From assembly GCA_964629685.1 (NCBI GenBank), contig CAZVTT010000001.1, positions 769,319 through 833,318 on the forward strand: DNA of 64,000 nt. The letters are read 5' to 3'. Below, piece after piece: positions 23,227 to 51,221 of this stretch. A program made the translations under genes and the position numbers. The notes beneath the pieces were generated by a model. That model saw only the letters and a program-made list of their open reading frames with translations. It was not told the DNA's origin and searched no databases. Position 1 is the stretch's first letter. Every line of letters begins with the position of its first letter. The stretch is from an uncultured Gammaproteobacteria bacterium. Its GTDB lineage: Bacteria; Patescibacteriota; Microgenomatia; UBA10105; UBA927.

Positions 23227-23913
23227 ATGAAAACAGTTAGCATTATTGTTCCGGTGTATAACGAAGAAAAGACCATAGACGAGGTTTTATCGGCAGTTAT
23301 ATCCCAGGAGATACCCGGTTGGAAAAAAGAAATAATCGTCGTCGATGACGGGTCGAAAGATGCTACCAGAGAGAAGTTAAAAGCCTGGCAAAAGAAATGT
23401 GCCATTATTCTGAAGCCTAAAAACGAAGGAAAAGGTTCAGCCGTCGTTGAAGGTTTTTCCAAAGCGACAAGTGAAATAGTAATTATTCAGGATGCAGATC
23501 AGGAGTATAGCCCGACGGATTATCCGGTACTATTAAAACCGTTTGAAAATCAGAAAGTAAGTGTTGTATACGGTTCGCGGTTTCTCGGCCCGCATCTTTC
23601 AACTATGTTTGTATACGCGCAGGGAAATAAATTTGTAACATTAATGACGAATATTCTTTTCAATACGAACTTAACAGATATGGAAACAGGATTTAAAGTT
23701 TTCAGAAGAGGTGTACTCGACGGTGTGATTATCAGGGCAAAACGATTTGACTTTGAACCTGAGTTTACGGTTAAGGTATTGAAGCGTGGATATCAGATTT
23801 ATGAAGTTCCGATATCGTATTACGGACGAACTTTTATGGAAGGGAAAAAATTAACATGGAAAGATGGAGTAGCCGCCCTTTGGACATTGGTTAAATACCG
23901 TTTCACTGATTGA
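23227..23913 (+). CDS. GT2 polyprenyl-phosphate sugar synthase (Dpm1/GtrB/ArnC-like)
   Basis: Short (228 aa) soluble GT2: VSIIVPVYNEEKTIDEVL...IIVVDDGSKDAT...IIQDADQEYSP. Confidence 0.7.
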   Translation: MKTVSIIVPVYNEEKTIDEVLSAVISQEIPGWKKEIIVVDDGSKDATREKLKAWQKKCAIILKPKNEGKGSAVVEGFSKATSEIVIIQDADQEYSPTDYPVLLKPFENQKVSVVYGSRFLGPHLSTMFVYAQGNKFVTLMTNILFNTNLTDMETGFKVFRRGVLDGVIIRAKRFDFEPEFTVKVLKRGYQIYEVPISYYGRTFMEGKKLTWKDGVAALWTLVKYRFTD

Positions 23914-31419: not shown

Positions 31420-31473
31420 TAACAGTGTGGATTTCATTTGAATGTATACTTGTCCAAACGTACTGGATCGGTT

Positions 31474-32637
31474 ATGAAAAAACAATTACGCGTATTACAG
31501 ATTGGACATGTAAAAGTTCCGGGGGTAGTTCAGGATTTAAAGCAGTATCTCATACAGTCTTATTCGGATGTTTCTACATTTGAGCATCCGTTTTCAACTA
31601 TTATCGAGCTGAATAAGACTACTGCTTCCTTATATGAGAAATATATTCAAGGGCGACTAGTTGAAAGGAAAAATAGCTTTGCACCTGTGGGAAGTGAATT
31701 GTTCTTCTGGCTAAGAGATGTTCTGTGGACCTGGTGGGAAGTGTGGCGATGTGGGAATTCGTATGATGTGGGAATAGGAATGGATTGCCTGAATGCTTCT
31801 ACCGTACTTGTTTTAAAATTTTTGGGGAAAGTAAACTATGTGGTGTACTATACGGTAGATGTAACTGATAAAAGGTTTTCAAATCCGATACTTAGTTGGT
31901 TATATTTACAAATGGACAAAAGGTGCTGCCAGTTTGCCGATGAAGTATGGGATATCAGTCCGGCGGTGCAGCCGCTTCGAGAAAAGTACGGGTACGGATC
32001 ATTTCCGAAAATTACCCGGATTGTTCCCATCGGTGTATATCCTGAGGAATATAAACGGAATTCCCAGCGCAAATTTCAGGATTCTACCATAGTATATTTA
32101 GGTTCTTTATTCTCGATTATGGGAATTCAGCTTGCGATTCGAGCGATGCCGTTAATCTTGAGGCGTATACCCAAAGCCCGTTTACGAATTATCGGTAAAG
32201 GAAACTATGAACAGTCACTACGGGAATTAGTAGGAGAATTAAATTTACAACAGGTTGTCTCGTTCGAATATTATCCTACGAGGAAAGAAAATATCAGAAA
32301 GTTATTCTCTTCGACTATCGGGATTGCTCCGTATACGTATGACCAGGAGTCATATAAGTTTTATTGTGACCCAACCAAAGTCAAGGAATATTTTGCTGCA
32401 GGATTACCAGTAGTGATTACTGACGTTCCGGATGTTAGTAAGGTTATTGCAACAACACCTATGGGTATTCGTGTGCGGTATGATGAACATGAGTTTGCTG
32501 AAGGAGTTATTGCGTTATTACGTGATAAGGGTTTTTATTCGTTATGTCGTAAAAATATTAAAGTATACATCCGTAATTATTCTTGGACTGAAATTTTTAG
32601 GTCGGCATTTGTAGGAATAGAAAACCGTTTCTTATGA
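31474..32637 (+). CDS. Glycosyltransferase family 4-like (GT-B); paralog of 49963-51192
   Basis: C-terminal KVKEYFAAGLPVVITDVPDV. Middle-region motifs VVYYTVDVTDKRF and CCQFADEVWDISPAV match VVYYVSDYSPKRY and CCYHADFIWDLSPAM in the minus-strand GT4. The track ORF starts at 31438; ATG 31474 (MKKQLRVLQIG) is preferred. Confidence 0.6.
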   Translation: MKKQLRVLQIGHVKVPGVVQDLKQYLIQSYSDVSTFEHPFSTIIELNKTTASLYEKYIQGRLVERKNSFAPVGSELFFWLRDVLWTWWEVWRCGNSYDVGIGMDCLNASTVLVLKFLGKVNYVVYYTVDVTDKRFSNPILSWLYLQMDKRCCQFADEVWDISPAVQPLREKYGYGSFPKITRIVPIGVYPEEYKRNSQRKFQDSTIVYLGSLFSIMGIQLAIRAMPLILRRIPKARLRIIGKGNYEQSLRELVGELNLQQVVSFEYYPTRKENIRKLFSSTIGIAPYTYDQESYKFYCDPTKVKEYFAAGLPVVITDVPDVSKVIATTPMGIRVRYDEHEFAEGVIALLRDKGFYSLCRKNIKVYIRNYSWTEIFRSAFVGIENRFL

Positions 32638-35378
32638 AGCGAAATCGTATCATACTCGCTGTGTTGTTAGTCTTAACACTTCTGTCTCTTCGTGGATTTG
32701 TAACCGGAAACATTATTTTTACCACCTGGGATTTTGCTTTTCCTATGTCTTTACCTCAGGTCCAATCACAGTTGGAACGCAGCATGTCCATTATTACTGC
32801 GCAATATAGTATGGGATACGCGGATAATCAGAATCCGATTTCATTTTATTTTTGGTTATATATTTATCCGTTAATTTTTGTAGCAGCCCAACATACAGCC
32901 AAGATACTCATCGGAATAAGCTTGTTCTTATCTGGTTTATTTATGTACCGGTTATTACGGTATTTGGGAGTTGGGTTGATAATCGCGCTGGTGTTTTCTG
33001 CATACTTCATGTTCAACCCCTTTTTTTACAGCCGCATGATTGCCGGCCATTACGGTGTTATGGCGGGAGTTCCGTTTAGTGTGCTTTATGTGCACGCATT
33101 GATTGAATGGCTTAGTCCGGAAAAAAAATCGAGATATTTATTTGTTGTAATTTGTCTTGCCTTTGTTCTGTCATCATTCCATCCGATGATGATGGGAGTG
33201 ATCGGCGTTTTAACGACAGGCATCATAGCACATGCGGTGTATAACAGCAGGGAAAGACATACTGTAGTCGGTAAATCCGTGCTTTTAGGTTTGTGTGTGA
33301 TACTTATAAACGCCCATTGGTTGGTTCCTATGGGGGCAAATTATTTTCGGGACAAACCTTTTTTTCGGGGAGATTTGACTGTTGCTGAAGAGACGGTAAA
33401 CCGGATCAGTAAGGTGGAAGGTTCCGCAAATCCCATATGGTATCCGTTTTTTTTCTATAACAGAACCGGTTTAGATACGGAGTATGTGTATCCTGTACAT
33501 TCTAAGAAATTATGGTTTGGTGCGCAGATATTGCTGGCGGGAATGGCAGTCTTAGGAATAGTACGGAAGAAAAAAAGAGAATATACGATATTATTTACAG
33601 GTTTGTTCCTGACCGGCATGGCTTTAACCTCCGGAATGGGGAATCCTGTGGGTACGTGGCTGTACACATATATACTTTCAAATCTGGGTCCGGTTTTTTT
33701 CGAATTTTCCAATAGTAACCGATTTTTACTGCTACCTATCATAGGGGGTAGCATATTTATGGCCTTGGGTGTCGATGGTTTATTGCGGAAATATCAGTCA
33801 CGGGCTACGCTGATAGCGATAGTTGCTATTTTATGTGTTGGTATACGGGTATTTAGTTATTTCGATAATAGTCTATTCATAAAGCAAAACGATTTGACAA
33901 CGCCGTACTCATATTTTACCGAACCTTTCGGTGCTGATGAAGAATATATATTGGGTTTATTTAACGAAAAATCTGAGTACCGTAAGGCGCTTGCTCCACC
34001 ATTCCAGATATCGCCCGTAGGTATCGGACAAATAAACTACGGCACAATGTCCGGTGTCTCGTTTATTAACGATTTTTTTAACGGATACGCTTCAGAAAAT
34101 CCTTTTCAGCACTTCGTGATTTCCGCATTTGCTTCTCCGCAAGTACCTTCACAGCGATTGGATTTGGCGCTCAGTTTGGCAAACGTTTCTGAACTCTATT
34201 TCCCGACGTACAATAAATATTATTACTTTTTGGACTTTGGACAATATAAAAATGCGAGTAATAAGGAAACTCTTTATGAAAGTAACTCCTCCTTTGAACG
34301 CACTTTATCGATGCAAACCGTTTTGGCGCCGAATCCGTTAAGAAGTAAGCCAAACGTGATCAACGTTTATCAAAACCCAAAGGTACAACCAAGAATTCAG
34401 GGTATTTCTAGTTCATACCTTCTCGGTGGTTCGTATGATTTGTTGTTCCCCGTCATGCAGGATGAACGGTTTAGCTTAGCCAATTCTACCGTTATGTTTG
34501 CCCGTTTAACAGGCAAGCAGGGCTTACTTTCCAGTACTGATGTAGTCCTTCCGGATTCGAATACTGATGAATTGTTATACGTCTTACTTGACCCGCTGGA
34601 TATTCCTCAAATTATGTTGGAACCGCGCCGACAAATTAAGAATTACTACCGTGGAGAGTATGTATTAGCTGCAATACCGGGCAAGCGAAAGGGCATTGTA
34701 CTGGAGGATGGATCTTACGAGATTCAGCTTTCTCAAAATACTGAAGCTGCTGTGGCATTATTGCATATAGCAACGACATCTGCGGTGGTAAAAATTAACG
34801 GAATTACCGTATGTCAGGGAACAAAAGAGTGTAGCCCGTATCATCAGTTACCGTTGGGCAGTACCTCATCAGCGACGTTAACGGTACATGGAGGAAGACT
34901 CTATTTGTCCGATTTATTTATCACCGGTGCAAACCGGTTAAAGGAGAAGAAAACCGAGCTACAGTCATATTTAAACGGAAAACATATACATATAGTGGAG
35001 ACTAATACCCAGACAGTCCGTTGGGCCACCGAACGGGGTGGTAGTCCCATACTGCAACCTGTTAGGTTTACCAGGTTGACGCCGGATACCTACAGCGCAA
35101 ATATTCCTGCCGGTTTATCTATGCTTTATTTTTCACAGCAATTTGATGAAGATTGGGTTATTGAAGGATATCCCACGGTAATGAAATTACCGGCAGGTGC
35201 GGACGGCATGCTATTTATCCTAAACGGAATTGTAGGACAAATAACAATTAAACATCATGTACAATCATACGTATATCTGGGTTATTGCATAACACTTTCT
35301 ACCTGGTTTATAGTGTGTTGTCTGCAGCTTTTTTGGACAAGGAGTCGGCATGAGAAAAACAAAGAAACGATCAGCTAA
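32634..35378 (+). CDS. Giant (914 aa) polytopic membrane protein, unknown family, paralog 1; GT-C-like architecture
   Basis: N-terminal ~400 aa carries many TM helices with TTWDFAFP...[17 protein letters not shown]. This is followed by a long hydrophilic domain and a C-terminal TM anchor ([23 protein letters not shown]). The N-terminal motif is shared with 41894-45403. Confidence 0.5.
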
Positions 35379-36423
35379 AAAAATACTGGTTACCGGTTCA
35401 GCGGGGTTAATCGGTTCGGAAGCCGTTAAATTTTTTTGTGAACGAGACCATGAAGTTATCGGAGTGGATAATAATATGCGTCAATATTTTTTCGGTAGAG
35501 AGGCGAGTACCGAATGGAATAAACAAACCCTAGAGCAACTTTATCCAAAACAATATACGCATATAAATGCCGATATTCGGGATGAACAGGCTATCTCACA
35601 AATTTTTAAGAATAACCAGTTTGATTTGGTTATTCATACTGCAGCACAACCGTCGCATGACTGGGCTGCAAAAGAGCCACTCACTGACTTTTCCGTGAAT
35701 GCCTATGCAACATTAATCGTGCTGGAACAGTACCGCAAATTTTCTCCGGAAGCTGTTTTTATTTTTACTTCGACAAATAAAGTATATGGGGACAGACCGA
35801 ACGAACTGCCATTGGTTGAACTTGCTCACCGTTATGAATTGCCAGAAGATCATACATTTTATCGTGGTATAGATGAATCGATGAGTATAGATGCCAGTAA
35901 ACACAGCGTTTTCGGTGCTTCTAAAGTAGCCGCGGATATAATGGTCCAGGAATACGGACGATACTTCGGTTTGGCGACAGGTGTATTTCGGGGTGGTTGT
36001 CTGACCGGACCTTCCCATTCGGGTACGAAGTTACATGGTTTTCTTGCGTATTTGGTGCGGTGTATTAAGCGTGGGGATGAATACACGATTATCGGATATA
36101 AAGGAAAACAGGTGCGTGATAATATTCATGCATTTGATTTGGTAAATGCGTTTTATCACTTTTATAAAAATCCCCACAACGGAGAAGTTTACAATATGGG
36201 TGGCTCGCGTCATTCAAATGTATCTATGCTTGAAGCCATCACGAAGATTGAACACATAACCGGGAAAAAGGCAAAAATAAAGTATATAGATCAAAATAGA
36301 ATCGGTGATCATATTTGGTATATTTCGGATGTTACTAAATATCAAAAACATTACCCTGACTGGAAATATAAATACACTATAGATACATTGCTTGAGGAAC
36401 TGGCGACAATGGGGCACGAATAA
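35350..36423 (+). CDS. NAD-dependent sugar epimerase (SDR), CDP-paratose 2-epimerase (Tyv)-like
   Basis: [14 protein letters not shown] is the GxxGxxG motif. ...[35 protein letters not shown] and [15 protein letters not shown] resemble the CDP-tyvelose-2-epimerase family. Confidence 0.7.
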
Positions 36424-36429
36424 CGCACT

Positions 36430-37494
36430 ATGAATATAAAGCACATACTAATTACCGGGGGAGCAGGATTTATCGGTTCCAATCTTGCAGTTGCACTACG
36501 GAATTTTGATTCAGGTATTTCTGTTACGGTGATTGATAATTTAATGCGAACGGGATCGGAGTTAAATATTCCCAGGCTACGGAATGCCGGTGTAACATTT
36601 GTCCATGGTGACGTGCGTAACCCTGAGGATTTAGAAATTTCCGAAATTGACCTTATTATTGAGTGTTCTGCTGAACCTTCGGTTACCGCCGGGCTGGATG
36701 GCAGTCCGGAATATGTGATTAATACCAACTTAGTCGGCGCGTTAAACTGTTTTGAGTTAGCGCGCAGACATCGGGCGGCAGTTATTTTCCTATCGACAAG
36801 CAGAGTTTATCCCATCGCGCTATTAAATAATCTTGTTGTTTCCGAAGGACCGACCCGATTTGAACTTGCCGATAGGCAGGAGTTAGCAGGAGTATCAGGA
36901 AACGGTTTAACAGAAGATTTTCCCATGCACGGGGTTCGTTCTATTTATGGAGCGACAAAATATGCCGCTGAATTATTACTGCAGGAGTATTTATCTGCAT
37001 ACAATCTGAAGGGAATAGTAAACAGATTCGGTGTTATCAGCGGGCCGTATCAAATGGGAAAAGTCGATCAGGGCGTAGGAGCATTATGGATGGCTGCCCA
37101 TGTATTCGGAAAGCAGTTAACATACTTTGGTTTTGGGGGTAATGGTAAACAAGTGCGCGATATACTTCACATAAACGATCTCATTACTTTAATTATTACG
37201 GAAATAGAGCATCTGGATGAAATTTCCGGTAATGTTTTTGTCGCGGGTGGCGGAAAAGAAAATGCGGTTTCGTTATGTGAATTAACCGGTCTATGTCAGC
37301 AGATTTCCGGAAAGAAAATCAAAGTAGTCTCTAAAAACGAAGTAAGAAAAGCCGATATAAAAGTATATATCTCGGATAATACCAAAATAACTAAAACACT
37401 TGGATGGAAACCACACCATACAGTGAAGTCAATACTCACGGATATTCATTCGTGGATGATGCAAGAATATAAGATCCTGCAGCCATACTTCTGA
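36430..37494 (+). CDS. NAD-dependent sugar epimerase/dehydratase (SDR), second copy of the same subfamily
   Basis: ILITGGAGFIGSNLA; YGATKYAAELL (YxxxK); GKQVRDILHINDL. Confidence 0.7.
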   Translation: MNIKHILITGGAGFIGSNLAVALRNFDSGISVTVIDNLMRTGSELNIPRLRNAGVTFVHGDVRNPEDLEISEIDLIIECSAEPSVTAGLDGSPEYVINTNLVGALNCFELARRHRAAVIFLSTSRVYPIALLNNLVVSEGPTRFELADRQELAGVSGNGLTEDFPMHGVRSIYGATKYAAELLLQEYLSAYNLKGIVNRFGVISGPYQMGKVDQGVGALWMAAHVFGKQLTYFGFGGNGKQVRDILHINDLITLIITEIEHLDEISGNVFVAGGGKENAVSLCELTGLCQQISGKKIKVVSKNEVRKADIKVYISDNTKITKTLGWKPHHTVKSILTDIHSWMMQEYKILQPYF

Positions 37495-37524
37495 AATGGT
37501 ATTCGTCGGGAAAGTATATTATCT

Positions 37525-38712
37525 ATGAATATATTGGTTGTTGGATTCGGTCATACTTCTAAAACCGCTACTCCCACCCGCGCCAGAAGCGGTGGTGAGA
37601 CGAAACTGTTAAACATGCTACCTGTTTGGCAACGGCTTTCACAAAATCACTTGACGTTCTTAACATCAAACGCATATGCGTGCATCCTGAGGAACGAAAT
37701 TCCCGGAATTTGTACGTTGGAGTTACATAAAATATTTGATCAGAGTAAATTGGGATTTGCCTGGCTATCACTAAAAAGAATTACAGCGGTTTGGTCTGTT
37801 CGGTTATCCGAAAAGCCGGATATTATATATTGTTCTTCAGATCTTTTTTTTGACGTAATACCAAGTGTCCTAGTTAAACGATGCAATCCTAAAGCGAAAT
37901 TGATTTCCTGTGTTTTTCTAGTATCCGCTACTCCATGGCGTGCATTCCAAACTGCAGGATCGTTGCTTTCAGCTGTTAAAGCTTGGGCATTTTATTTATT
38001 ACAAATAATAAGTTTTCTATTTCTTCGTCTCTCTGCCGACGGTATTCTTGTCCTGAATGAACTCGATAAACAGTCGTTAATTCAGCGTGGCTTTCCTGCT
38101 GAAAAAATTTTTATTACCAGTGGCGGTGTGGATATCCGGGAAATAAAATTACAATCTGCAACTCCAAAGCGGTATGATGCGGTGTTCCTCGGTAGGTTCC
38201 ACCCACAAAAAGGGATTGCCGATCTTCCGGAAATTTGGAGAGCGGTCTGTCATAAACTTCCGGGAAAAAAGCTATTAGTCTGTGGTGGTGGAGATGAGCG
38301 AATGCAGAAAATACTGGGACAACAAATCCAGGATTATGGCTTGAACGCCGTTATTACGGTAAAATCTCAGCTTTCCAGAAAGGAAGTAGTGGATTGTTTG
38401 CATTCGGCAAGAGTGTTCGTATTTCCGAGTCATCATGAAAGTTGGGGATTTGTTGTTGCAGAAGCTATGGCTTGTGGGTTGCCTGTCGTCGCGTATATGT
38501 TGCCGTATATGAAGTCGGTATTTACTTCCGGTATCCGATCCGTGCCGTGTTACGATAGAGAAAAATTTGCAGAGGCAATTTGTTCTTTATTATCCGACTC
38601 AACGGAGTATAAACGCATGAGTGCTGCAGCGATTAATCAGGCAAAACGATATGATTGGAATCATGTGGCGCAACGGGAATATGGATTATTCGGGGATATA
38701 CTGAAAACATGA
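37525..38712 (+). CDS. Glycosyltransferase family 4
   Basis: C-terminal FVFPSHHESWGFVVAEAMACGLPVVAY. Confidence 0.75.
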   Translation: MNILVVGFGHTSKTATPTRARSGGETKLLNMLPVWQRLSQNHLTFLTSNAYACILRNEIPGICTLELHKIFDQSKLGFAWLSLKRITAVWSVRLSEKPDIIYCSSDLFFDVIPSVLVKRCNPKAKLISCVFLVSATPWRAFQTAGSLLSAVKAWAFYLLQIISFLFLRLSADGILVLNELDKQSLIQRGFPAEKIFITSGGVDIREIKLQSATPKRYDAVFLGRFHPQKGIADLPEIWRAVCHKLPGKKLLVCGGGDERMQKILGQQIQDYGLNAVITVKSQLSRKEVVDCLHSARVFVFPSHHESWGFVVAEAMACGLPVVAYMLPYMKSVFTSGIRSVPCYDREKFAEAICSLLSDSTEYKRMSAAAINQAKRYDWNHVAQREYGLFGDILKT

Positions 38713-39869
38713 GAATACTTTATATAACCTCCGGTTCGGAGAATGTAGGAACATACTTTCGGGCATTGTTTTGGGCAAAGTATATAGCATCAACCGGAAA
38801 TCAGGTTACGCTTATATCCGGACATGAAGGTCCTTCTTTTAAGCTAAGCGTGTCGAAAATTCGGGATGGTATACATATTGTTACGTTTATTAAAACCGGG
38901 CTGAAATGGGATTATTTTGGTTATCTATTGCGAAGTGTGCTTATCTTTTTATATGTACTTACGCATGACTTTGAAGTGATCCATGTATTTGTCGGCTGGC
39001 AGCCGCCATCGTTTGCGGCTATTTGTGCTACATATTTGAAGCGTTTATTCGGATACAAAATAAAATTACTCTGTGACTGGGATGATCTCTGGGGAGGACC
39101 ATCCGGGATTGTTCATGAACACGGTACGTTGATCTCAGCATTGGCGACGAAGTTGGAATATTTGATACCAAAACTTGCGGATAGGATAACGGTGTGCAGT
39201 AATTTCTTGTTTTGTTATGCTGTGAACTCGGGAATACCCGAAGGTAAAATTAGTATCGTATACAACGGTTCAAACGTCGATGCCATCAAACCATTATCAA
39301 AGTTAAATTCACGGAAAAAATTGGGAATTTCCGGAAACGGAAAACTGATAGTGTATATTGGACAATACCAGTCACCTATTGTAGGTATCATGCTGCGTTA
39401 TATGAAGTCATTTTTACATGCGCACAAAGACGTACGTTTCTATATACTCGGTAGTTTATCAACAGTTTATCAGCGGGAGCTACGTGATTTACCAGCAGTT
39501 TCATATCTCGGTAAAGTACCACATATTGAATTATCTTTGTACTTTTCCGCTGCGGATATCCTGTTATTGCCGATGGCGGATTCCGATGCTGAACGCGCCA
39601 GATTCCCCATTCGCTTCGGGGATTATTTAGCATCCGGTACCCCCATGTTGGTATCGCCTCAGGGAGAGGTGGCAAAATTAATTAGTGAAAATAAGCTGGC
39701 ATATACGGTTGATTTTACCGATGAATATAGTTTTAAGAACGTATTAGCGAAAGTGCTGTCGGATCCAAAAAGGGGACAAGTGGGTGCACGTGCCAGAGAT
39801 TTTGCGGAACGCAAGCTCTCTTGGAAACATATCGCACAGCAGTTAATAATCCTGTATGAAACAAATTAA
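38709..39869 (+). CDS. Glycosyltransferase family 4-like (divergent)
   Basis: ATG 38709 (MRILYITSGSENVG) overlaps the upstream TGA. GT-B two-domain length. C-terminal LLLPMADSDAERARFPIRFGDYLASGTPMLVS. Confidence 0.65.
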   Translation: MRILYITSGSENVGTYFRALFWAKYIASTGNQVTLISGHEGPSFKLSVSKIRDGIHIVTFIKTGLKWDYFGYLLRSVLIFLYVLTHDFEVIHVFVGWQPPSFAAICATYLKRLFGYKIKLLCDWDDLWGGPSGIVHEHGTLISALATKLEYLIPKLADRITVCSNFLFCYAVNSGIPEGKISIVYNGSNVDAIKPLSKLNSRKKLGISGNGKLIVYIGQYQSPIVGIMLRYMKSFLHAHKDVRFYILGSLSTVYQRELRDLPAVSYLGKVPHIELSLYFSAADILLLPMADSDAERARFPIRFGDYLASGTPMLVSPQGEVAKLISENKLAYTVDFTDEYSFKNVLAKVLSDPKRGQVGARARDFAERKLSWKHIAQQLIILYETN

Positions 39870-41025
39870 ACCGGTCGTAATGATCGTAACTCCTTTTTTT
39901 AGTCCCAATGTGGGAGGAGTGGAAACACACCTTGATGATTTAGTTGATGTATTAAACGTCAAACACATTCATTCCGTCGTTTCCACCTATTCTCCGTTAA
40001 CAACGGTTATAGCATTCAAACAGAAGGAACAGCGTGAGCTGTGTACCATTTATCGTCTACAGTGGATAGGTAGAAATATATTTCATGCGATAGAACATAA
40101 TCCGTTATTTGCAATGCTATATTTATTCCCGGGTCTGTTTATTCAAACAGTCCTTTTATTAATGAAACATCCGGAAGTTACGGTACTGCATGCACAGGGT
40201 TTCGTGGCAGCTCTTGTCGTTAAGTGCTGCAGTGTCTTTTTCCGTAAGCGGACGGTTATGAGTACACATGCTCTGTACACGCTACCCCAAAAGAAGCTTT
40301 TGGCGGGAGTATTTACATGGATTCTCTCGGGTTTTGATGTAGTACTAACATTATCCAAGGCATCTACAGATGAGTTGGTCCATGGAGGTATCCCTGCGAA
40401 TAAGATTAAACGGTATACCTATTGGGTAAATCAGAACATATTTAAACCCGGAGATAGTTTGGTGTCAAAACGGAATTTGGGTATATCGCACTCGAAACTG
40501 ATTCTATTCATGGGTCGACTTTTACGGAAGAAAGGTACGGAAATAGCGCTTGAGTTGGCAACCGGTATGCAAAAACACAATTATGCGGTGGGTATAATCG
40601 GAACCGGACCCGAGGAATTGAGAATCCGTACAAGCACCCGGGAAATACCCAATCTTTTGTTTTGGGGGAGAGTAAATAATACGCAGATTGTAAAATATTT
40701 ACAGGCTGCAGATGTACTCATAGTTCCTTCCCTTTATGAAGAGGGTATGGCTCGTGTGGTTATGGAGGCACTTTCCTGCGGCATACCCGTAGCTGCTAGC
40801 AATAGAGGGTCTTTACCGGAGATGTTGACGGAGCCTAAAATTTGTCGACTGGTAGAGCCCACGGTTGCGGAGTTTACTAAAGCAGTCAAATCGCTCACTG
40901 CATTGCCGGCAGTCCAGCAGCGCATTTTGAGTCGGCGTTTTGCAGAACAGCGGTTTTCCGATAAGAATGCGGAAGTGATTTTATCAGCATACGAACATAC
41001 AAGTGTTGTAGTTAAGCATCCATGA
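39856..41025 (+). CDS. Glycosyltransferase family 4
   Basis: VMIVTPFFSPNVGGVETHLDDL and EEGMARVVMEALSCGIPVAASNRGSLPEM. Confidence 0.75.
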   Translation: MKQIKPVVMIVTPFFSPNVGGVETHLDDLVDVLNVKHIHSVVSTYSPLTTVIAFKQKEQRELCTIYRLQWIGRNIFHAIEHNPLFAMLYLFPGLFIQTVLLLMKHPEVTVLHAQGFVAALVVKCCSVFFRKRTVMSTHALYTLPQKKLLAGVFTWILSGFDVVLTLSKASTDELVHGGIPANKIKRYTYWVNQNIFKPGDSLVSKRNLGISHSKLILFMGRLLRKKGTEIALELATGMQKHNYAVGIIGTGPEELRIRTSTREIPNLLFWGRVNNTQIVKYLQAADVLIVPSLYEEGMARVVMEALSCGIPVAASNRGSLPEMLTEPKICRLVEPTVAEFTKAVKSLTALPAVQQRILSRRFAEQRFSDKNAEVILSAYEHTSVVVKHP

Positions 41026-41897
41026 AAAACATAGTACAGAAATCTATATTTAATACGAAGTATGAAGAACACAAGGGAGATATAAGCGAACTTCTGGTTG
41101 ATCTGCATCTCAGGCGAAAATCAGGATTAAGCTGGTATCCACGTGCTTTATATGAGCAAACATTTACGGAAAATGAATCTTCCTTAGCGGTAACTCCCAG
41201 AAGTTCCGTTCTCGATGTCGGCTGCGGCGTGGGAGCATCGGCTATTAGTTTTGTACTATCAGGTGCTGAAGTTGTGGGAATAGATTTTTCCGCAGCAGGA
41301 ATTAAACGTGCCAGAAATATATTTAACGCGGCAGGTGAAAAAAAGATCAGTTTTAAACAGGCTGATTTTTTTGCTCTGCATAAAAACAGGAAAAGATATG
41401 ATGTCATTAGTCTGCAAACGTTTATGGAACATATGGAAGATATGGGTCAAGCCGGTCGCGTGTTGAGAACTGCTAAAATTTTACTAAAGCCCGGTGGTAA
41501 AATTTTTATTTATACGGTGAATAAGCATTTTATATACAGGTCTCTGGCGAAAATATTTAAACCGGACTATTTACGGAAACAACTGGAAGCCATGGGACAT
41601 CACGACCAGCTATTTTATGATGAAAAAGATTTCAGAACATTGTTTGCTCAGGTGGGTTTAAAAACGGTCAAAGTTTCGTTCGTATTCGGACCGGTATCAT
41701 TTCTGTATGATTTATATCTTTATCCGAAAATTCTCTCGTGGTATCTCAGTAGCAGGGAATCGAATACTATTCCCACATGGGCGGGAGTATATGACCATGT
41801 AATACTTCCCGTGCTTAGAATATTTTCGGTACTGGATATGCCGTTCATCCGAGCCGGCAACAGTAGCGGAATTATCGCTATTGCGGTAAAATTATGA
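41022..41897 (+). CDS. Class I SAM-dependent methyltransferase
   Basis: VLDVGCGVGASAISFVLSGAEVVGIDFS (motif I and II) and LKPGGKIFI. Confidence 0.75.
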   Translation: MKNIVQKSIFNTKYEEHKGDISELLVDLHLRRKSGLSWYPRALYEQTFTENESSLAVTPRSSVLDVGCGVGASAISFVLSGAEVVGIDFSAAGIKRARNIFNAAGEKKISFKQADFFALHKNRKRYDVISLQTFMEHMEDMGQAGRVLRTAKILLKPGGKIFIYTVNKHFIYRSLAKIFKPDYLRKQLEAMGHHDQLFYDEKDFRTLFAQVGLKTVKVSFVFGPVSFLYDLYLYPKILSWYLSSRESNTIPTWAGVYDHVILPVLRIFSVLDMPFIRAGNSSGIIAIAVKL

Positions 41898-44800
41898 GGC
41901 TGTCCACCCGCTTCATGAAACGAACAACATTCTTGGCTTTACTTCTATTTATTCTCGTTTCCGCCTGTTTCTTCCGAACCGTTTTGTTTACTCGCGGTAT
42001 GATTGCCAGGACTTGGGACTGGGGTATTCCGGCTACCGGTACGCAGTACGAAAAGGTACTTTCTTCACAGTTTTTTGTTTGGGACGATCGAATATACGGG
42101 GGTTTAAAATCCACATTTAAAAATGAGCTGCCGTTCTGGTTGCTTTTTTCCCCGCTGTCACCATTTGGAGGAGAAGTAGTCTCTAAAGTTATCCCCTTAC
42201 TACTCATCATACTAGCAGGATTTTCCATGTTCCTACTCGGTACAAAAACATTTCGTTCAAATTGGTTTACCGCGTTTATCGCCGGAATGTTCTATGCATA
42301 TTCACCTTTTGCGTATAGCCGGATTATTGCCGGGCATGTAACCATGCTGTTGGGCTATGCGCTTCTGCCTTTACTGTTAGGATTCAGCATTACTTTTTTT
42401 TCCTACCCAAAACGTTCCACGATACATATGTTGGGGATTTTTTCCGCACTTTTAATTATAGCTACGCTTGTTTCGGTTCACTTAAATATGGCAATTCTCG
42501 GAATCGGAATAGTATTTCTGGGCTGCATTTATACGATTACGGAATACCGAAGTCGTATACTGTCTCTTCTAACAAAGCTCGTTTTTTTCGGAATCGGATT
42601 TGTGTTGTTAAATGCGTTCTGGATTGTACCCGTTGTGACTTCGTATATATATGAGCGGGGTATTTATTTACGACCGAATGAAACGGTAACCGAAGAAGCA
42701 GCCAGGCGCGTAAGTTATATTTCTTCTCAGAGTCAATCGCTATTGGGTGTTATTTCCTATGACCTACCGTTTGGTTTAAGCACCGAGTTCGTGTACCCCA
42801 ATTCCGGTGTCGGGAAAGTTTTCCTCTCACTGGCGGCTATTCTGCTTTTTGGGTGCCTGCTTATTTCTTCCGGCATCATGAAGCGGGCCAAAATGCTCAT
42901 ATTTTATGCATTTTTTCTCATAAGTCTACTACTTACTACCGGCAACACTCTTATCCCCGGGGAGGTGCTGTACGGAGTGCTGCTACGGTTTGTACCGTTT
43001 ATTTTTGCCGGGTTTTCAAATCCCCTCCGATTTTTACCGTACGTATTCCTTTCTGCCGGCGTTATTCTAATCTTCTGCATTAAACATCTGGAAGTACGCT
43101 TTGTGCGGTATCTTTTCGTAGTTAGATTTTTACTCGTATTTTGGTTGATATTGCTTATTCAACCGTGGTTAGGTTCTGCCTTTATACGTCCGATTGTTCC
43201 CGGTGATTCGCAACCTCTTTCATTAATTATTGCGCCGGTTCATGGTGATAGCGAAAAAATAGAGCGGTTGTTGTCGGAACAGGAGAGTACGAATCGATTC
43301 GTGGTATTTCCTCCCTCGTTTCTGTCCTGGCCGGGACAAACTGATCAAATTTTTCCTTGGGCTGCAGGTTATTATCCGAAGCCCGTTATGTTTCAGTACC
43401 TGCAGGAGCCTTTGGCAACTGCGTTGTATCAACAGTTATACACAAGAGCGACGAGTGTATACCTGGCGCGCTTGCTTGGGTTAGGGAATGTGGAAACCAT
43501 AGTATACCCCTATTATGATTCCTTCGAATCGTATTATACATTTCGACCGGGAATTAAAAACTATAAACCTTTATTCGATGCCAATTTGTCAGTTCAACGC
43601 AATATAACGGAATTCCCTACTACGGCCACTCATACCCGAGTTTGGAAAAATGAAGATGTCTTGCCCAAGATATATGCTTCCGAATTTACTACGGTAATTA
43701 ATACGAATGAAGCACTTGTAGATGCGGTTTCACTGCCGGGTTATATTCAACGGTCATTAATACGAACTGAATCTGGTGAGGAAACAATACTCCCGTATAA
43801 CCGTTTGATTTTGAAACCTCAGATGGTAACACCACCCAAAGAAAATGCGGAGTTGGATGCCTTGGTTTCACCGCCGGTCAGATTTCTGCCAACGTCGCCG
43901 TTTTATTGGATAGTAAAACGCAGCGAATCGCGAATTTATTCTGTTTCGTCGGATCCCCAAGTCCGTGAAGCACTAACGTTGGCGGGTAAACGTCTGGCAG
44001 AAATACGCATGATGTTGGCCAGACAGCCATATCCTTATCTGGAAGTAAAAGAAAACATTCTTGAATATGAACGGATTGTACGGCTGGTAGCTGTATATAT
44101 TGACGCAAACGGCATTTTATCTGAGCAGACAGCGTTTGATATACGGTACGTTTTCGATCATCACTATCGGGATATTCAACAAATTTCCGCAGCCAAAGAG
44201 TTTGATGGGTTTGCGTCTGAGCTCAATAGTACGCTATCGTTGCTTTTTGACTTACTTCAACAGGTAGAAAAAAACATTGTATCGCGTTCGGATCCGAATG
44301 TCCTATATTTTTCCCTGGATAACTCCAACGCCGGTGAATATGAAATGTGGCTTCCGGACGAACATTCTCTACCCGAGTCCGTGACGATTAATGATGATTT
44401 CCTTGATATAACGAAAATACAGCATAAGGAAGAATGGGTGTCGTTAGGAAAAATAAACATGCCAAAGGGAAAAATAAGAATGGAAATGAAGTATAAACCC
44501 CAACAGAACCTGTGGGCTGGTTTTACTAACCAATTCATTACAGACCAGACCATTGGGGGAGATTTGGTGGAAGTGTTAAAAGGGCAACCGAGGTATATGT
44601 CTTACCTGAAAGAAATTTCCGGGATTATACCAAATCGTTTATACCGATTGTCGTTTTCATATAAGGTTTCGGATAGTCCTGCCAGATTAACGATTGGACC
44701 GATACTGGGACAAAACAGTACTCATGTGGAAAATACATCTTACTATGAAAAGATACTCGTTCCTGAAAATAACTGGCGGGAATCTCATCTGAATTTTTAT

Positions 44801-45403
44801 TCTGCCGTTTCCACGACAGCGGCAGTGGTGAAGCTTGATACGAATCCGACAGAATATAATATTGAACACTATAAATTAAAGGACATGAATTTTTCGGAAG
44901 TACCGGAAGCCCGCCCTGTCTTCGTAAGAACAGAAAATATACCGGCAATTACGATTCCTACCATCCATTTCCAAAAGGTAAATCCGGCACGTTATCGGGT
45001 ATTAGTATCAGGTGCCGTGGAACCGTTTACGTTGGTTTTTGGAGAATCTTTCCATTCCGGTTGGCAGATTTCCAGACGTAAGACTACTGAAATGTCATCA
45101 GGTTCAAAAGGTTTAACGTATTTTAACGGTCAAGTTACGGAGGAAGTCCCGAACTATTCGTTTATGGATTTGAATTTTTTATCAGGAGAAAGATATGAAA
45201 AATTACCGTATCCATTAAAACATTTTATGGTAAATGGCTATGCGAACGCATGGCTTTTGGACCAAAGCGGATCGTATGAATTGGAGTTGGAATTTGTACC
45301 GCAGCGATATATGTATGCCGGGTTATTTATAGCGGGATTAAGTTGGGCTATTTGTCTCACCCTCGGACTTATTTGGTTAATAAAAAGGCAGCAACATGAA
45401 TAA
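41894..45403 (+). CDS. Giant (1169 aa) polytopic membrane protein, unknown family, paralog 2
   Basis: The N-terminal TM bundle carries RTWDWGIP...YSRIIAGHVTMLLGYALLPL, parallel to 32634-35378. The hydrophilic domain is about 650 aa. A C-terminal TM anchor (LFIAGLSWAICLTLGLIWLI) is preceded by HFMVNGYANAWLLD. Confidence 0.5.
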   Translation: MRLSTRFMKRTTFLALLLFILVSACFFRTVLFTRGMIARTWDWGIPATGTQYEKVLSSQFFVWDDRIYGGLKSTFKNELPFWLLFSPLSPFGGEVVSKVIPLLLIILAGFSMFLLGTKTFRSNWFTAFIAGMFYAYSPFAYSRIIAGHVTMLLGYALLPLLLGFSITFFSYPKRSTIHMLGIFSALLIIATLVSVHLNMAILGIGIVFLGCIYTITEYRSRILSLLTKLVFFGIGFVLLNAFWIVPVVTSYIYERGIYLRPNETVTEEAARRVSYISSQSQSLLGVISYDLPFGLSTEFVYPNSGVGKVFLSLAAILLFGCLLISSGIMKRAKMLIFYAFFLISLLLTTGNTLIPGEVLYGVLLRFVPFIFAGFSNPLRFLPYVFLSAGVILIFCIKHLEVRFVRYLFVVRFLLVFWLILLIQPWLGSAFIRPIVPGDSQPLSLIIAPVHGDSEKIERLLSEQESTNRFVVFPPSFLSWPGQTDQIFPWAAGYYPKPVMFQYLQEPLATALYQQLYTRATSVYLARLLGLGNVETIVYPYYDSFESYYTFRPGIKNYKPLFDANLSVQRNITEFPTTATHTRVWKNEDVLPKIYASEFTTVINTNEALVDAVSLPGYIQRSLIRTESGEETILPYNRLILKPQMVTPPKENAELDALVSPPVRFLPTSPFYWIVKRSESRIYSVSSDPQVREALTLAGKRLAEIRMMLARQPYPYLEVKENILEYERIVRLVAVYIDANGILSEQTAFDIRYVFDHHYRDIQQISAAKEFDGFASELNSTLSLLFDLLQQVEKNIVSRSDPNVLYFSLDNSNAGEYEMWLPDEHSLPESVTINDDFLDITKIQHKEEWVSLGKINMPKGKIRMEMKYKPQQNLWAGFTNQFITDQTIGGDLVEVLKGQPRYMSYLKEISGIIPNRLYRLSFSYKVSDSPARLTIGPILGQNSTHVENTSYYEKILVPENNWRESHLNFYSAVSTTAAVVKLDTNPTEYNIEHYKLKDMNFSEVPEARPVFVRTENIPAITIPTIHFQKVNPARYRVLVSGAVEPFTLVFGESFHSGWQISRRKTTEMSSGSKGLTYFNGQVTEEVPNYSFMDLNFLSGERYEKLPYPLKHFMVNGYANAWLLDQSGSYELELEFVPQRYMYAGLFIAGLSWAICLTLGLIWLIKRQQHE

Positions 45404-45734
45404 GTATTTACCAAATATGCAGATAAATTGGATCGGGGATTTGCCCAAAATACTGGTGTACGTAGTTTTAGTTTTCTGCGTAGTGATGGTAAAACAATTG
45501 CCGTACTTCAACGTGTATTTACCACTATCTTATTGTCTGATTCTTTTATGGGTAGCCGGTATTTGGATGTTTAGACCAAAACAATGGGTAACGCTGACCA
45601 TAAGCTTGTTATTCTTTATTGTAGGCGCTGTAGTACATGTTACCGGTGATACCTCCGTAGCGGGTGAGTTTGTAACGGCTGGCTATTATATTTGCTTTAT
45701 CCTATTTTTCCGGAATTTGCGGGTTACGTTATGA
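45396..45734 (+). CDS. Small (112 aa) 3-4 TM membrane protein, function unknown (GtrA-like flippase candidate)
   Basis: Almost entirely hydrophobic. Translationally coupled at both ends (8-nt and ATGA overlaps) between two giant membrane proteins. Confidence 0.35.
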   Translation: MNKYLPNMQINWIGDLPKILVYVVLVFCVVMVKQLPYFNVYLPLSYCLILLWVAGIWMFRPKQWVTLTISLLFFIVGAVVHVTGDTSVAGEFVTAGYYICFILFFRNLRVTL

Positions 45735-47782
45735 AACGTATATTTGGGTCTGGTATCGTGAATCTACTTGTCAGTCTACTGCTTGTTTGTTTCGTTTATC
45801 GCGGATGGTTTACCGGTTCACTGGTTTTCGGTGGTGATCATTTTTTCCCTCCATATAGCTCAATGGTATCGGGGTTAGCTGACAGGCCATACGCGTGGGA
45901 TCCTTTTAAGGGAAATGGTTTAGGCGGGGTGAATCTTGGCACATTATGGATAGATACTTATGCGCAGGTGGTACCGAATTTGCTTCAGAGGGTCGGTATT
46001 CCTCCTGCTATGACGCAAAAAGTAGTATTTACGTGGTTGTTTTTAGTTCTGGGATTTGTAAGTATTTCGTTCTTTTCCCGAGTACTATTTGGCCTTTCCG
46101 GATTAACTGGTTGGTATAGCGGAGTATTGTATCTTACCAATACTTATATTCTCATGGTTATGAGCGGTGGGCAATTCGGAATCGGTATGGCGTATGCCAT
46201 TGCGCCCCTCGTGTTAGGTCTGACAGTTCTGTGTCTGCGGGGTACACCTGCGGTTTCTCCTCCGAAATTATCATATTTGTTGGGATTTGTGATTTCGATT
46301 CAGATTTTTTTCGACTTGCGGTTAACGTATATTACTCTGTGGATGGTTTTGGGAGCTTGTATCGCGTATATAATTCTTTCGCGCCCGGAGACCCGTATGC
46401 AGCAGCTTCTAAAAGTGGCAGTACGAATAGGTGTCCTCCCGGCAGTAGTAGCAGTCTTGCCTCACATGTTTTGGTTACTCCCGTTACTCGTTTATCGGGT
46501 AAATCCGGTGGAACAACTGGGTGCCGCATATACGAGTATCTCCGCCGTCAGATTCTTTAGTTTTGCCGATTATTCGCATGCCTTTACCTGGTTACATCCG
46601 AATTGGCCGGAGAACATATTCGGAAAAACATATTTCCTGCAGCCGGAATTCTTGATAGTTCCTATAGTGGTTTTTTCCGCGCTGTGGGTTATACCTAAAG
46701 TTGCAAATTTAGAACATTGGGTTACATTCCGAATTAGGTTACTGATGCTGTTGGCACTTATCGGAATATTTTTATCGAAAGGAACGCAAGAGCCGTTGGG
46801 ATTTATATATCTTTGGTTATATACATATATTCCGGGTTTCTTTCTGTTCCGTGATCCGACCAAATTCTATCTCGTAACTGCAATTGCTTATTCAGTTTTA
46901 ATCCCAATTTCGCTTGCACTGATATACAGATGGGTTTCTATGAACCCATTTATGAAGACATATGTAAAGTCGCGCTGGGTTGTGCAGGGGGCTTTGCTTG
47001 TCGTAGCTATCGGTTGGCTTGTACTTATAAGACAAAGTATTACAGGAGAAATCCGGGGCACGTTTTATCCCAAACGTATTGCACCTGAATACGGCGTATT
47101 TGCAGAGCATATGCATGCTGACACAGCATTTTATCGAACGCTTTGGTTACCCAGACATCATTTTGCCTCATACTTTGATGTAAGTCATCCGGTGGTGGAT
47201 GCGGACCTCCTCATTCCCGGAGCTGGAATATATGACACAATAGAGTATCTGCAACTAGCTTCTGCATATACAAAATTATCTGACATTGGAGTACGGTATA
47301 TTGTAGTTCCGTATGATACGGAACAGAACATTTTCACCATAGACCGGAAATACGATCACGCTCAATATACGGCGGCAGTAGAAACGCTGAGTACGATTCC
47401 CTGGCTTACAAAAGTTAACGGTTACGGATCTTTGGGAGTTTTTGAGCTCAAACGATATCTGCCCAAGTTTTCCTTAACACGTGCTCCGGAATTAAGGGAC
47501 GTTGCGTATACTATGCATGAACCTACGAGGTTTACTGTTGAGTTGCCCGCTGGAAGTAGTCTCTTACGGTTTAATGAGAGGTATGCACCCGGCTGGGTAT
47601 TACGGACGGGTTCACGGAAAGTAACGGCAGTTGCGGACGGAGACGGAATGATGGAGTTTCCTGTAGCTGGTTTACGTGATTCGGTAGAAATTTATTTTGA
47701 ACCACAGCAACTGCTCGAGCGATCCGGATTAATTGCAATAGTAATGCTGATTATTTTATCCGTTGGAGTACTATTTTTTTAG
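45731..47782 (+). CDS. Large (~683 aa) polytopic membrane protein, unknown family, paralog 3 (more divergent)
   Basis: ATG 45731 (MKRIFGSG) overlaps the upstream TGA. About 13 TM helices in the N-terminal ~430 aa, then a hydrophilic domain and a C-terminal TM helix (LIAIVMLIILSVGVLFF). The first loop GGDHFFPPYSSM..AWDPF resembles the other two. Confidence 0.45.
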   Translation: MKRIFGSGIVNLLVSLLLVCFVYRGWFTGSLVFGGDHFFPPYSSMVSGLADRPYAWDPFKGNGLGGVNLGTLWIDTYAQVVPNLLQRVGIPPAMTQKVVFTWLFLVLGFVSISFFSRVLFGLSGLTGWYSGVLYLTNTYILMVMSGGQFGIGMAYAIAPLVLGLTVLCLRGTPAVSPPKLSYLLGFVISIQIFFDLRLTYITLWMVLGACIAYIILSRPETRMQQLLKVAVRIGVLPAVVAVLPHMFWLLPLLVYRVNPVEQLGAAYTSISAVRFFSFADYSHAFTWLHPNWPENIFGKTYFLQPEFLIVPIVVFSALWVIPKVANLEHWVTFRIRLLMLLALIGIFLSKGTQEPLGFIYLWLYTYIPGFFLFRDPTKFYLVTAIAYSVLIPISLALIYRWVSMNPFMKTYVKSRWVVQGALLVVAIGWLVLIRQSITGEIRGTFYPKRIAPEYGVFAEHMHADTAFYRTLWLPRHHFASYFDVSHPVVDADLLIPGAGIYDTIEYLQLASAYTKLSDIGVRYIVVPYDTEQNIFTIDRKYDHAQYTAAVETLSTIPWLTKVNGYGSLGVFELKRYLPKFSLTRAPELRDVAYTMHEPTRFTVELPAGSSLLRFNERYAPGWVLRTGSRKVTAVADGDGMMEFPVAGLRDSVEIYFEPQQLLERSGLIAIVMLIILSVGVLFF

Positions 47783-47800
47783 TATGTTACAATAAAATCC

Positions 47801-48751
47801 ATGTCAAAAACTAAAATAAGTATTGTCGCCGGAGGAGCAGGATTTATTGGATCACATCTCTGTGATGCGCTGTTAGCTGCCGGTCATGAGGTATACGCGG
47901 TAGATAATCTGGCAACCGGAAACAGACAAAATAACGCTGCAGCTGTAAAAAATTCCGCATTTCATTTTTTAGAGCATGATGTTACGCAGCCTGTGCCATT
48001 AACAGTTAGACCGGATTATATTTTTCATCTGGCTTCTCCCGCCTCCGTGCCCGATTACCAGCGGCTTATGGAGGAGACAGCGCTCGTAAATGCGTTGGGA
48101 ACAAGGCTGTTACTCCAATTTGCACATGCGAGCGGAGCACGCTTTCTCTTTGCCTCTACCTCGGAAGTGTACGGTGATCCGAAGGAGCATCCGCAGCGGG
48201 AAACGTACTGGGGAAACGTAAATCCCAACGGTGAAAGGGCTTGTTATGATGAGTCAAAGCGGTACGGTGAAATGATGACGGAGTTATATGTGCGTAAACA
48301 TAATGTAGATGCCAGAATTGTACGGATTTTTAATACCTACGGGCCACGAATGCGCAAAACTGACGGAAGAGTAGTGTCCAACTTTATTAACCAAGCTTTA
48401 CGAAATGAACCATTTACGATCTACGGAGACGGGACGCAAACGCGTTCGTTCTGTTTTGTTTCCGATTTAGTTAACGGATTACTCAAATTGATGTTTACCG
48501 AAAACATTCAGGGTGAAGTCGTAAATTTGGGAAACCCGGAAGAGTTTCAGATGTTGGACTTTGCTAAAAAAATTGCCGGAATAACCGGACAAACACCAAA
48601 ATTTGTGTTTAAACCACTACCCGTAGATGATCCGACGCAGCGAAAGCCGGATATTCAGAAAGCAAAATCTCTTTTGGAATGGGTGCCAACAGTGTCAATT
48701 GATGCGGGGTTACGCCAGACAGTTGAATATTATAAATCGGCTACATACTAA
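47801..48751 (+). CDS. uxs: UDP-glucuronate decarboxylase (UDP-xylose synthase)
   Basis: ISIVAGGAGFIGSHLCDALL...HEVYAVDNLATG, ASTSEVYGDP..HPQRETYWGNVNPNGERACYDESKRYGE and RIFNTYGPRM make a characteristic UXS/ArnA-C-terminal signature. Confidence 0.85.
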   Translation: MSKTKISIVAGGAGFIGSHLCDALLAAGHEVYAVDNLATGNRQNNAAAVKNSAFHFLEHDVTQPVPLTVRPDYIFHLASPASVPDYQRLMEETALVNALGTRLLLQFAHASGARFLFASTSEVYGDPKEHPQRETYWGNVNPNGERACYDESKRYGEMMTELYVRKHNVDARIVRIFNTYGPRMRKTDGRVVSNFINQALRNEPFTIYGDGTQTRSFCFVSDLVNGLLKLMFTENIQGEVVNLGNPEEFQMLDFAKKIAGITGQTPKFVFKPLPVDDPTQRKPDIQKAKSLLEWVPTVSIDAGLRQTVEYYKSATY

Positions 48752-51192: not shown

Positions 51193-51221
51193 GCTCGAAG
51201 AACACAGTGGGCAAGGATGTG

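Follow-up and report, generated by a model that had tools for sequence, protein, structure and literature searches.

Which family do three very large membrane proteins belong to, and what do they do, when they lie within a long run of sugar-handling genes? This question is raised by a 64,000-nucleotide stretch of DNA (the window) from an assembly deposited as an uncultured Gammaproteobacteria bacterium and placed by GTDB in the Patescibacteriota (Microgenomatia; UBA10105; UBA927): positions 769,319 to 833,318 of contig CAZVTT010000001.1 (GenBank assembly GCA_964629685.1), forward strand. A model's reading of the DNA and its open reading frames (ORFs), the sequence-only reading, had singled out three giant proteins, here named P1, P2, and P3, as paralogs of no recognized family. 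On profile comparison, P1 to P3 are divergent, uncurated, Patescibacteria-centered branches of the AftD/YfhO part of the GT-C superfamily; they represent neither a new fold nor new chemistry, and they are not a family without relatives. They probably act as GT-C glycosyltransferases that take sugars from polyprenyl-phosphate donors and attach them, outside the membrane, to a surface glycan.

Architecture and relatedness of P1, P2, and P3

All three ORFs are present at the coordinates and lengths given in the sequence-only reading. P1 (32634..35378, + strand; 914 amino acids [aa]) is an AftD-like GT-C protein with approximately 11 transmembrane (TM) helices, an outside region, and a C-terminal TM anchor. 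P2 (41894..45403, + strand; 1169 aa) was identified using BLASTP, AlphaFold2 (AF2), and Foldseek as a paralog of P1 with a larger outside region. P3 (45731..47782, + strand; 683 aa) belongs to a widespread Microgenomates family related to YfhO, as determined from its homologs, hhalign comparisons, and Pfam searches of its relatives. The ATG start of P3 at 45731 overlaps the stop codon of a small upstream ORF, and use of an upstream TTG at 45692 would give a protein of 696 aa.

Hydropathy and the helices of the AlphaFold models bore out one common layout with a single C-terminal TM anchor in P1, P2, and P3. The N-terminal TM helices number nearer 11 than the 12 to 13 counted earlier, and the outside domain, previously estimated at 300 to 650 aa, was found to range from 220 to 700 aa (approximately 220 aa in P3, 460 aa in P1, and 700 aa in P2). 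In P1, the TM helices occupy aa 1 to 412, followed by an outside alpha/beta domain and two beta-sandwiches (aa 413 to 875) and the C-terminal anchor (aa 876 to 913). The outside region of P2 includes a helical bundle (approximately aa 671 to 795), then beta-sandwiches resembling carbohydrate-binding modules (CBMs), and ends at the anchor (aa 1136 to 1168), while P3 has approximately 11 TM helices, its outside domain of approximately 220 aa, and the anchor. As the N termini of all three proteins are positively charged, and from the helices of the AF2 models, the first loop and the large domain are predicted to lie outside.

P1 and P2 are clear paralogs, sharing 24% identity across 620 aa (BLASTP E value, 1e-24). 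Pairwise similarity of P3 to the other two was weak, with its C-terminal 75 aa matching P1 (E, 5e-6) and its TM region matching P2 (E, 0.002). When the P1/P2-family profile was compared with the P3-family profile using hhalign, the two aligned with 99.7% probability (E, 5.9e-27) over 478 columns spanning the entire TM domain, a kinship that at the profile level is far above chance. The proposal that the three are paralogous is therefore upheld, for P1 and P2 by BLASTP and for P3 by profile.

Two conserved motifs had been put forward. The first outside loop carries TWD(F/W)xxP in P1 (TWDFAFP, aa 31 to 37; 32724..32744, + strand), where D33 is the putative catalytic acid, and in P2 (TWDWGIP, aa 40 to 46; 42011..42031, + strand); P3 carries GGD at that site (aa 34 to 36; 45830..45838, + strand), and its D36 aligns with P1 D33 in the profile alignment. 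The core YSRxIAGH is found at aa 132 of P1 and aa 141 of P2, with the extended form, (Y/F)SRxIAGHxxxxxG(V/Y)xxxP, exact only in P2.

Structural models

The AlphaFold model of P1, for which a joint alignment of the P1/P2 and P3 families served as input, had a predicted local distance difference test score (pLDDT) of 85.1 and a predicted template modeling score (pTM) of 0.87. Using Foldseek, this model matched AftD with an E value of 4.8e-14 and a TM-score of 0.55, and the second family, the oligosaccharyltransferases (OSTs), followed at 7e-6. Judged from the model, AftD is by far the best structural match, its Foldseek E value lying approximately 8 orders of magnitude ahead of that of the next family. 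A second tier of structural neighbors of P1 comprised Pmt4 (18.2), AftA (18.0), STT3B (17.9), PglB (16.7), and AglB (16.5), with Pmt2 (16.3), ALG12 (14.8), and ArnT (14.5) further down and other ALG, PIG, AftB, DPY19, and PimE enzymes also included. The P2 model, with a mean pLDDT of 68 and confident in the TM domain only, likewise matched AftD (E, 2.3e-11), as well as CBM4/16/22. The GT-C-type layout suggested earlier is thus borne out for P1 and P2, which Foldseek places with solved GT-C enzymes, and by profile homology for P3. The suggested carbohydrate-binding character of the outside domain also gained support, as the modeled beta-sandwiches resemble CBMs in both structure and profile matches.

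Sequence links to AftD, YfhO, and other families

No match to PF11847 (GT-C_AftD) was obtained for P1 to P3 at E values up to 1, and none to the Pfam YfhO model (PF09586) even at an E value of 1. Links to both families emerged from profiles and relatives. Narrow profiles (A1, A2, and A3) found nothing when searched against PDB sequences; a broader profile built from 44 diverse family members (A5) reached the AftD chains 6w98/6wbx with an E value of 6e-7. This alignment covers the TM GT-C domain and, as a second stretch, the C-terminal beta-sandwich with its TM anchor. AftD was the sole PDB family reached by sequence, with A5 also matching CBM-containing chains. Among the 44 relatives themselves, Pfam identified GT-C_AftD in five (best E, 1.8e-11), PTPS_related in three, and DUF6541 in one, with CBM_11 and CBM_4_9 each found in single relatives.

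For P3, 7 of 28 relatives matched YfhO (best E, 3.1e-8) and 1 of 28 matched GT-C_AftD. In addition, the C terminus of the P3 family aligned with that of a YfhO protein encoded elsewhere in the window (7944-10313, - strand) with 96.9% probability (E, 1.9e-10; 94 columns), showing that the C-terminal beta-sandwich and single TM anchor of the two are homologous. The evidence for a YfhO-like C terminus in P1 and P2 was limited to a common motif and the alignment with AftD; compared by hhalign with the TM region of the window YfhO, the P1/P2 profile gave a nonsignificant probability of 5.7%. This motif, of the type (S/N)E.(F/Y)..GW, lies ahead of the last TM helix and is common to P1 (FSQQFDEDW), P2 (FGESFHSGW), P3 (FNERYAPGW), the window YfhO (FSDSYDPGW), and AftD (PESINPGW). 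Although assignment by motif had been judged out of reach, the proteins can be tied to AftD by Foldseek and profile and to YfhO via the relatives and the C terminus of P3.

The sole NCBIfam matches of the three proteins were to MmpA (NF053599), at 20.5, 28.0, and 21.5 bits against a cutoff of 210 (E, 1e-4 to 8e-7). MmpA is reported to have partial homology with the N-terminal part of AftD, and no catalytic role has been shown for it (PMC8698533); at the sequence level, the weak matches fit the kinship with AftD. Neither these nor the weak DUF6541 matches were taken as assignments, as they fall below the cutoffs.

Family size and conserved residues

A word-indexed homolog search identified six relatives each for P1 and P2 and more than 453 homologs of P3, all unnamed or labeled hypothetical, from Levybacteria, Gottesmanbacteria, and other Patescibacteria. 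That P1 and P2 form a tiny family was ruled out by an exhaustive hidden Markov model (HMM) search of 1.84 billion cluster representatives with a nine-sequence P1/P2 alignment, which returned 4795 representatives at an E value of ≤0.001, 1797 at ≤1e-10, and 170 at ≤1e-30, the counts at looser thresholds taking in the P3-type branch. Many of these representatives are 900 to 1400 aa in length. A scan of a genome collection with P1 alone gave no matches.

Two features of the database records were also observed. Many records titled "uncultured Gammaproteobacteria bacterium" (L007, L009, and L011, plus approximately 30 other loci) carry a Patescibacteria-type gene at 31 to 38% identity and stand beside records named Levybacteria or Gottesmanbacteria, so that the titles look like placeholders or wrong taxonomy. 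A P1-like homolog of 1054 aa on a 33-kb NCBI contig (P0005) begins with approximately 190 additional residues that include a P-loop and match Pfam Thymidylate_kin, and this extension reflects either a genuine fusion or the joining of two genes by the gene caller.

Residue conservation in the P1/P2 family was scored over 141 full-length representatives, using P1 numbering. The first-loop acid D33 is acidic in 136 of the 141 (D in 126 and E in 10). Other conserved columns are W54 (W in 128/141), P129 (130/141), G138 (140/141), W229 (119/141), R363 (R, H, or K in 122/141), R450 (R or K in 132/141), and P455 (133/141). Across 114 members of the P3 family, D36 is invariant, as are N137, Y139, G146 to Q148, R197, a WPEN motif, K350-G351, and an FRD..K motif. 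Strong conservation of a first-loop acid and of polar residues in both families is, as far as sequence can tell, what would be expected for active enzymes. In AftD, K39, D41, E251, K361, and D474 are essential residues that surround the cavity where the TM core meets the soluble domain (10.1101/2019.12.22.885152). P1 D33 probably corresponds to AftD D41, which is in the same first-loop region, and P1 E253 is close to the segment that aligns with AftD E251.

A conserved gene trio of P2, a small membrane protein, and P3

Between P2 and P3 lies a gene (45396..45734, + strand) for a small hydrophobic protein of 112 aa with three to four TM segments and the motif QLPYFN. The first 8 bp of this gene lie within the end of P2, and its last 4 bp are shared with the start of P3. 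The small protein had no Pfam or NCBIfam match, and a GtrA-like identity was not supported, as no similarity to GtrA was found.

To survey this arrangement, 80 genomic loci were fetched with the P3-family profile. A second homologous gene was present within 10 kb at 32 of the 80 loci, and at approximately 24 of them a homolog of 1130 to 1190 aa ends 200 to 550 bp upstream on the same strand. Each of the 19 inter-gene gaps inspected contained a small, very hydrophobic ORF (72 to 177 aa), most of which harbor an (L/I)PY(F/I/L/V)N motif after the first TM segment; at two loci, the small ORF is tandemly duplicated within one ORF (L005, 9459-9980; L065, 9451-9984). P2, the 112-aa protein, and P3 therefore represent a gene trio that is conserved in many Microgenomates genomes. 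As the trio is both conserved and translationally coupled, its three products probably act together and possibly form one complex, a physical association that we infer.

Gene orders at individual loci illustrate the conservation. In L082 (GCA_041753515.1), methyltransferase genes precede a 1127-aa P2-like gene, a 113-aa gene, and a 622-aa P3-like gene, and in L083 a methyltransferase gene is followed by genes of 1185, 114, and 706 aa, two P1-like genes, and GT4 genes. The P1-like genes of L083 (909 and 918 aa; 7332-12757) are in tandem directly after the trio, making four GT-C genes contiguous, whereas in the window P1 lies approximately 6.5 kb upstream of P2. The Levybacteria genome L008 carries the methyltransferase, P2-like, small, and P3-like set with an acetyltransferase gene inserted. 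Its P3-like gene (9992-12538) is present as two ORFs of 118 and 687 aa, both matching the P3-family profile, which suggests a frameshift or assembly error.

The surrounding glycan island

The whole 64-kb window is a glycan-biosynthesis island that harbors GT2, GT4, and sugar-modifying genes and a Wzx-like gene. The genes from 27285 to 49989 lie on one strand with junctions of -95 to +49 bp, a single gap of 233 bp excepted, in the order B12/radical-SAM (S-adenosylmethionine) protein, GT2, acetyltransferase, methyltransferase, GT4, P1, two epimerase/dehydratases, three GT4s, methyltransferase, P2, the small ORF, P3, and two epimerases. The gene for a cytoplasmic-type GT4 glycosyltransferase (31438..32637, + strand) ends 4 bp into P1. 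P1 is separated by two NAD-dependent epimerase/dehydratases and three GT4s (35350..41025, + strand) from the SAM-dependent methyltransferase (41022..41897, + strand), whose gene in turn runs 4 bp into P2; in L082 and L083, too, the P2-like gene is preceded by a methyltransferase gene. Directly after P3 is an NAD-dependent epimerase/dehydratase (47801..48751, + strand), and an epimerase follows the P3-like gene in L008 as well. Cotranscription of the three genes with GT4s, a methyltransferase, and the small TM protein, as earlier proposed, finds support only in the common strand and in junctions of -95 to +30 bp (28948-48751); in a promoter and terminator scan, counts were at or below shuffle expectation. 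The B12-binding radical-SAM protein that heads this operon (27285-28898, + strand) has the hopanoid-associated HpnJ as its best match, at an E value of 1.8e-44 and below cutoff.

Between 21391 and 26975 are GT2 and GT4 genes and the Wzx-like gene. A GT2 of 228 aa (23227-23913, + strand) resembles polyprenyl-phosphate-sugar synthases, its best NCBIfam models being AglJ, dolichyl-P-hexose transferase, PpgS, and ArnC, all below cutoff, and the end of this gene is overlapped by a Wzx-type flippase-like gene (23910-25166, + strand; Polysacc_synt match). This pair (23227..25166) could supply the donor for P1 to P3. Three short GT2s in total (23227-23913, 25153-25962, and 53904-54623) align over their full length to AglJ, dolichyl-P-hexose transferase, PpgS, or ArnC models and on this basis are candidates for making polyprenyl-P-sugar donors.

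Further membrane-protein genes lie upstream, where eleven large ones are found in a row on both strands (2944-21394), ten of them recognizable as GT-C: seven PMT_2, one PTPS_related, one YfhO, and one by the A1 profile only, with Pfam GT87 also among the matches. The gene recognized by profile only, at 10303-11961 (- strand), had no Pfam match and matched the P1/P2 profile at an E value of 6.5e-7, and the eleventh gene, at 19763-21394 (+ strand), of similar size, had no Pfam or profile match. This density of GT-C genes is unusually high for a genome contig under 1 Mb. Downstream of the operon, genes for a GT4, a DegT-type aminotransferase, a hexapeptide acetyltransferase, and a GFO/IDH/MocA oxidoreductase occur together (49963-53822, - strand), a set that we take to resemble WbpB/E/D-type diacetamido sugar synthesis. 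A sulfotransferase, an APH-type kinase, two epimerase/dehydratases, and a split transketolase (58601-60345) follow at 54672-60345 (+ strand), and these genes hint at sulfated or unusual higher-carbon sugars.

Proposed function and alternatives

P1 to P3 are read as glycosyltransferases of the extracytoplasmic face because of their fold, their nearest relatives, and their genomic context. In the proposed scheme, GT2 enzymes of the island would charge polyprenyl phosphate with a sugar on the cytoplasmic face, and the lipid-linked sugar would then be flipped to the outer face. Each GT-C protein would bind it where a cavity separates the TM core from the outside alpha/beta domain, the predicted location of the first-loop acid (P1 D33, P2 D42, and P3 D36), and would pass the sugar to a growing cell-surface glycan held by the CBM-like beta-sandwiches. 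The polymerase role that the sequence-only reading had also offered may apply but gained no support.

Several observations weigh against this proposal. Pfam and NCBIfam scans of P1, P2, and P3 returned no model at cutoff, the sense in which the earlier description of an unrecognized family holds. The P3-family profile by itself does not reach AftD, and as the models are those of P1 and P2, the GT-C fold of P3 rests on profile homology to these two. The outside region of P2 is weak in its model, with 296 residues having a pLDDT of <50. The HMM alignment starts after AftD D41, so that the equivalence with P1 D33 is not fixed residue by residue, and nor is that of other conserved residues with AftD E251, K361, and D474. 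On the donor side, all GT2 assignments are far below NCBIfam cutoffs, and Pfam recognized no GtrA/GtcA-type flippase in the window.

Block transfer of polyprenyl-diphosphate-linked oligosaccharides, in which P1 to P3 would serve as an OST, a ligase, or a Wzy-independent polymerase and move repeat units made by GT4/GT2 enzymes onto a protein or wall acceptor, is an unlikely alternative. It would suit the many cytoplasmic glycosyltransferases and the Wzx-like gene of the island, in which Pfam detected neither Wzy nor a ligase of the Wzy_C/WaaL type nor a priming phosphoglycosyl transferase across the 64 kb; however, these functions may sit outside the window or among the approximately 12 other GT-C genes of the island. 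An OST reading is disfavored by the lack of a WWDYG-type motif, neither WWD nor W(W/Y/F)D(Y/F/W)G occurring in P1, P2, or P3, and by the lead of AftD over the OSTs in Foldseek and its standing as the only PDB family found by sequence. Moreover, AftD and YfhO, to which sequence ties the three proteins, take single sugars linked to a monophosphate. That one or more of the proteins are noncatalytic, acting as a scaffold, lipid-delivery factor, or regulatory partner like MmpA or PIG-U/GAB1, appears distinctly improbable. The weak matches to MmpA are the only ones in NCBIfam, and the two divergent paralogs of the trio could be an active and an inactive partner, but the MmpA scores are an order of magnitude under the cutoff, both families strongly conserve the acid of the first loop along with several polar residues, and CBM-like domains suit an enzyme that holds a glycan acceptor. 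Least credible by far, and rejected, is the reading that P1 to P3 are transporters or other nonglycosyltransferase membrane proteins, the kind of confident assignment that the sequence-only reading had named as its refutation. Major facilitator superfamily transporters do appear in the Foldseek list, but nonsignificantly (E, ≥6e-3; probability, ≤0.47; TM-score, <0.1), and every significant match is a GT-C protein.

Beyond sugar transfer by the individual GT-C proteins, the trio may tentatively be pictured, with considerable doubt, as an extracytoplasmic machine specific to Microgenomates/Patescibacteria, in which a P2-like protein, the PYxN small protein, and a P3-like protein would form a heteromer that builds or polymerizes a wall or surface glycopolymer, with the small protein being a lipid-donor flippase or an essential subunit unrelated to GtrA. 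Such a machine, if real, would account for the lack of a Wzy, ligase, or GtrA gene in the island.

Significance

Patescibacteria genomes are tiny, and to our knowledge nothing is known experimentally about the envelope glycans of these bacteria. At least 64 kb of the source genome is given to surface-glycan genes, including approximately 15 GT-C-type enzymes. Placement near AftD and YfhO turns hypothetical proteins into candidates with a testable function and adds two sequence families from outside the curated libraries, one with approximately 170 cluster representatives at an E value of ≤1e-30 and the other with hundreds of members. Of practical use are the definitions of the families, the link to AftD, and the gene trio, which could be studied as a unit. 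If activity were shown, P1 to P3 would probably found new CAZy families, as GT136 did. The understanding of GT-C enzymes would stay unchanged, and a specialist would expect such enzymes in Patescibacteria genomes.

Comparison with known systems

P1 to P3 are remote homologs of both AftD and YfhO and probably resemble these two most in how they work. AftD (PDB 6W98/6WBX; PF11847 GT-C_AftD, formerly DUF3367) shares with P1 to P3 approximately 11 TM helices, a large outside region with CBM-like beta-sandwiches, and a return to the membrane, as well as an acidic residue just after TM1 and an ES.NPGW-type motif ahead of the C-terminal TM helix. Identity is only 10 to 13%, and P1 to P3 themselves lack a PF11847 match. 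Of the 16 TM helices of AftD, four form a C-terminal bundle to which acyl carrier protein binds (10.1101/2019.12.22.885152); as P1 to P3 have one C-terminal TM helix and AftD has five, this bundle is absent from them. The number and type of sandwich domains also differ, with P2 having an extra helical bundle, and the hosts are Actinobacteria for AftD and Patescibacteria for P1 to P3. No decaprenyl-phospho-arabinose pathway genes were seen in the window, and the donor of P1 to P3 must therefore differ from that of AftD. Holding of the acceptor by CBM-like domains has been proposed for AftD (10.1101/2019.12.22.885152) and shown for a GT136 enzyme (PMC11127046).

YfhO/GtlB proteins (PF09586), which function in three-component teichoic-acid glycosylation in Firmicutes, have the same multi-TM core, outside domain, and single C-terminal TM anchor. 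Both these and the Gtr-type three-component systems combine polyprenyl-P-sugar donors with GT-C enzymes (PMC5836110, PMC8035078, PMC11127046), and the YfhO logic of a polyprenyl-P-sugar donor and transfer on the outside likely applies to P1 to P3 (PMC5836110, PMC8035078). P1 and P2 differ in being larger and in having extra CBM-like domains. Whereas YfhO systems use a CsbB/GtrB-type GT2 and a GtcA/GtrA-type flippase, the window offers candidate GT2s, no recognizable GtcA/GtrA, and an unrelated small membrane partner.

The Gtr-type/GT136 systems (GtrA/GtrB/GtrC; Citrobacter ORF12/14/15) resemble the locus in that a GT-C enzyme bearing a CBM-like domain has a small multi-TM neighbor and the same island carries genes for polyprenyl-P-sugar-synthase-like GT2s. 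They differ in that the small protein of the window is without GtrA similarity and its gene is flanked by two divergent GT-C genes rather than one, and in that the GT2 candidates are not adjacent. Two divergent GT-C paralogs encoded together are also seen for EmbA-EmbB and Pmt1-Pmt2, with Pmt2, Pmt1, and EmbA being among the structural neighbors, and by analogy with these pairs the pairing in the trio suggests a heteromer.

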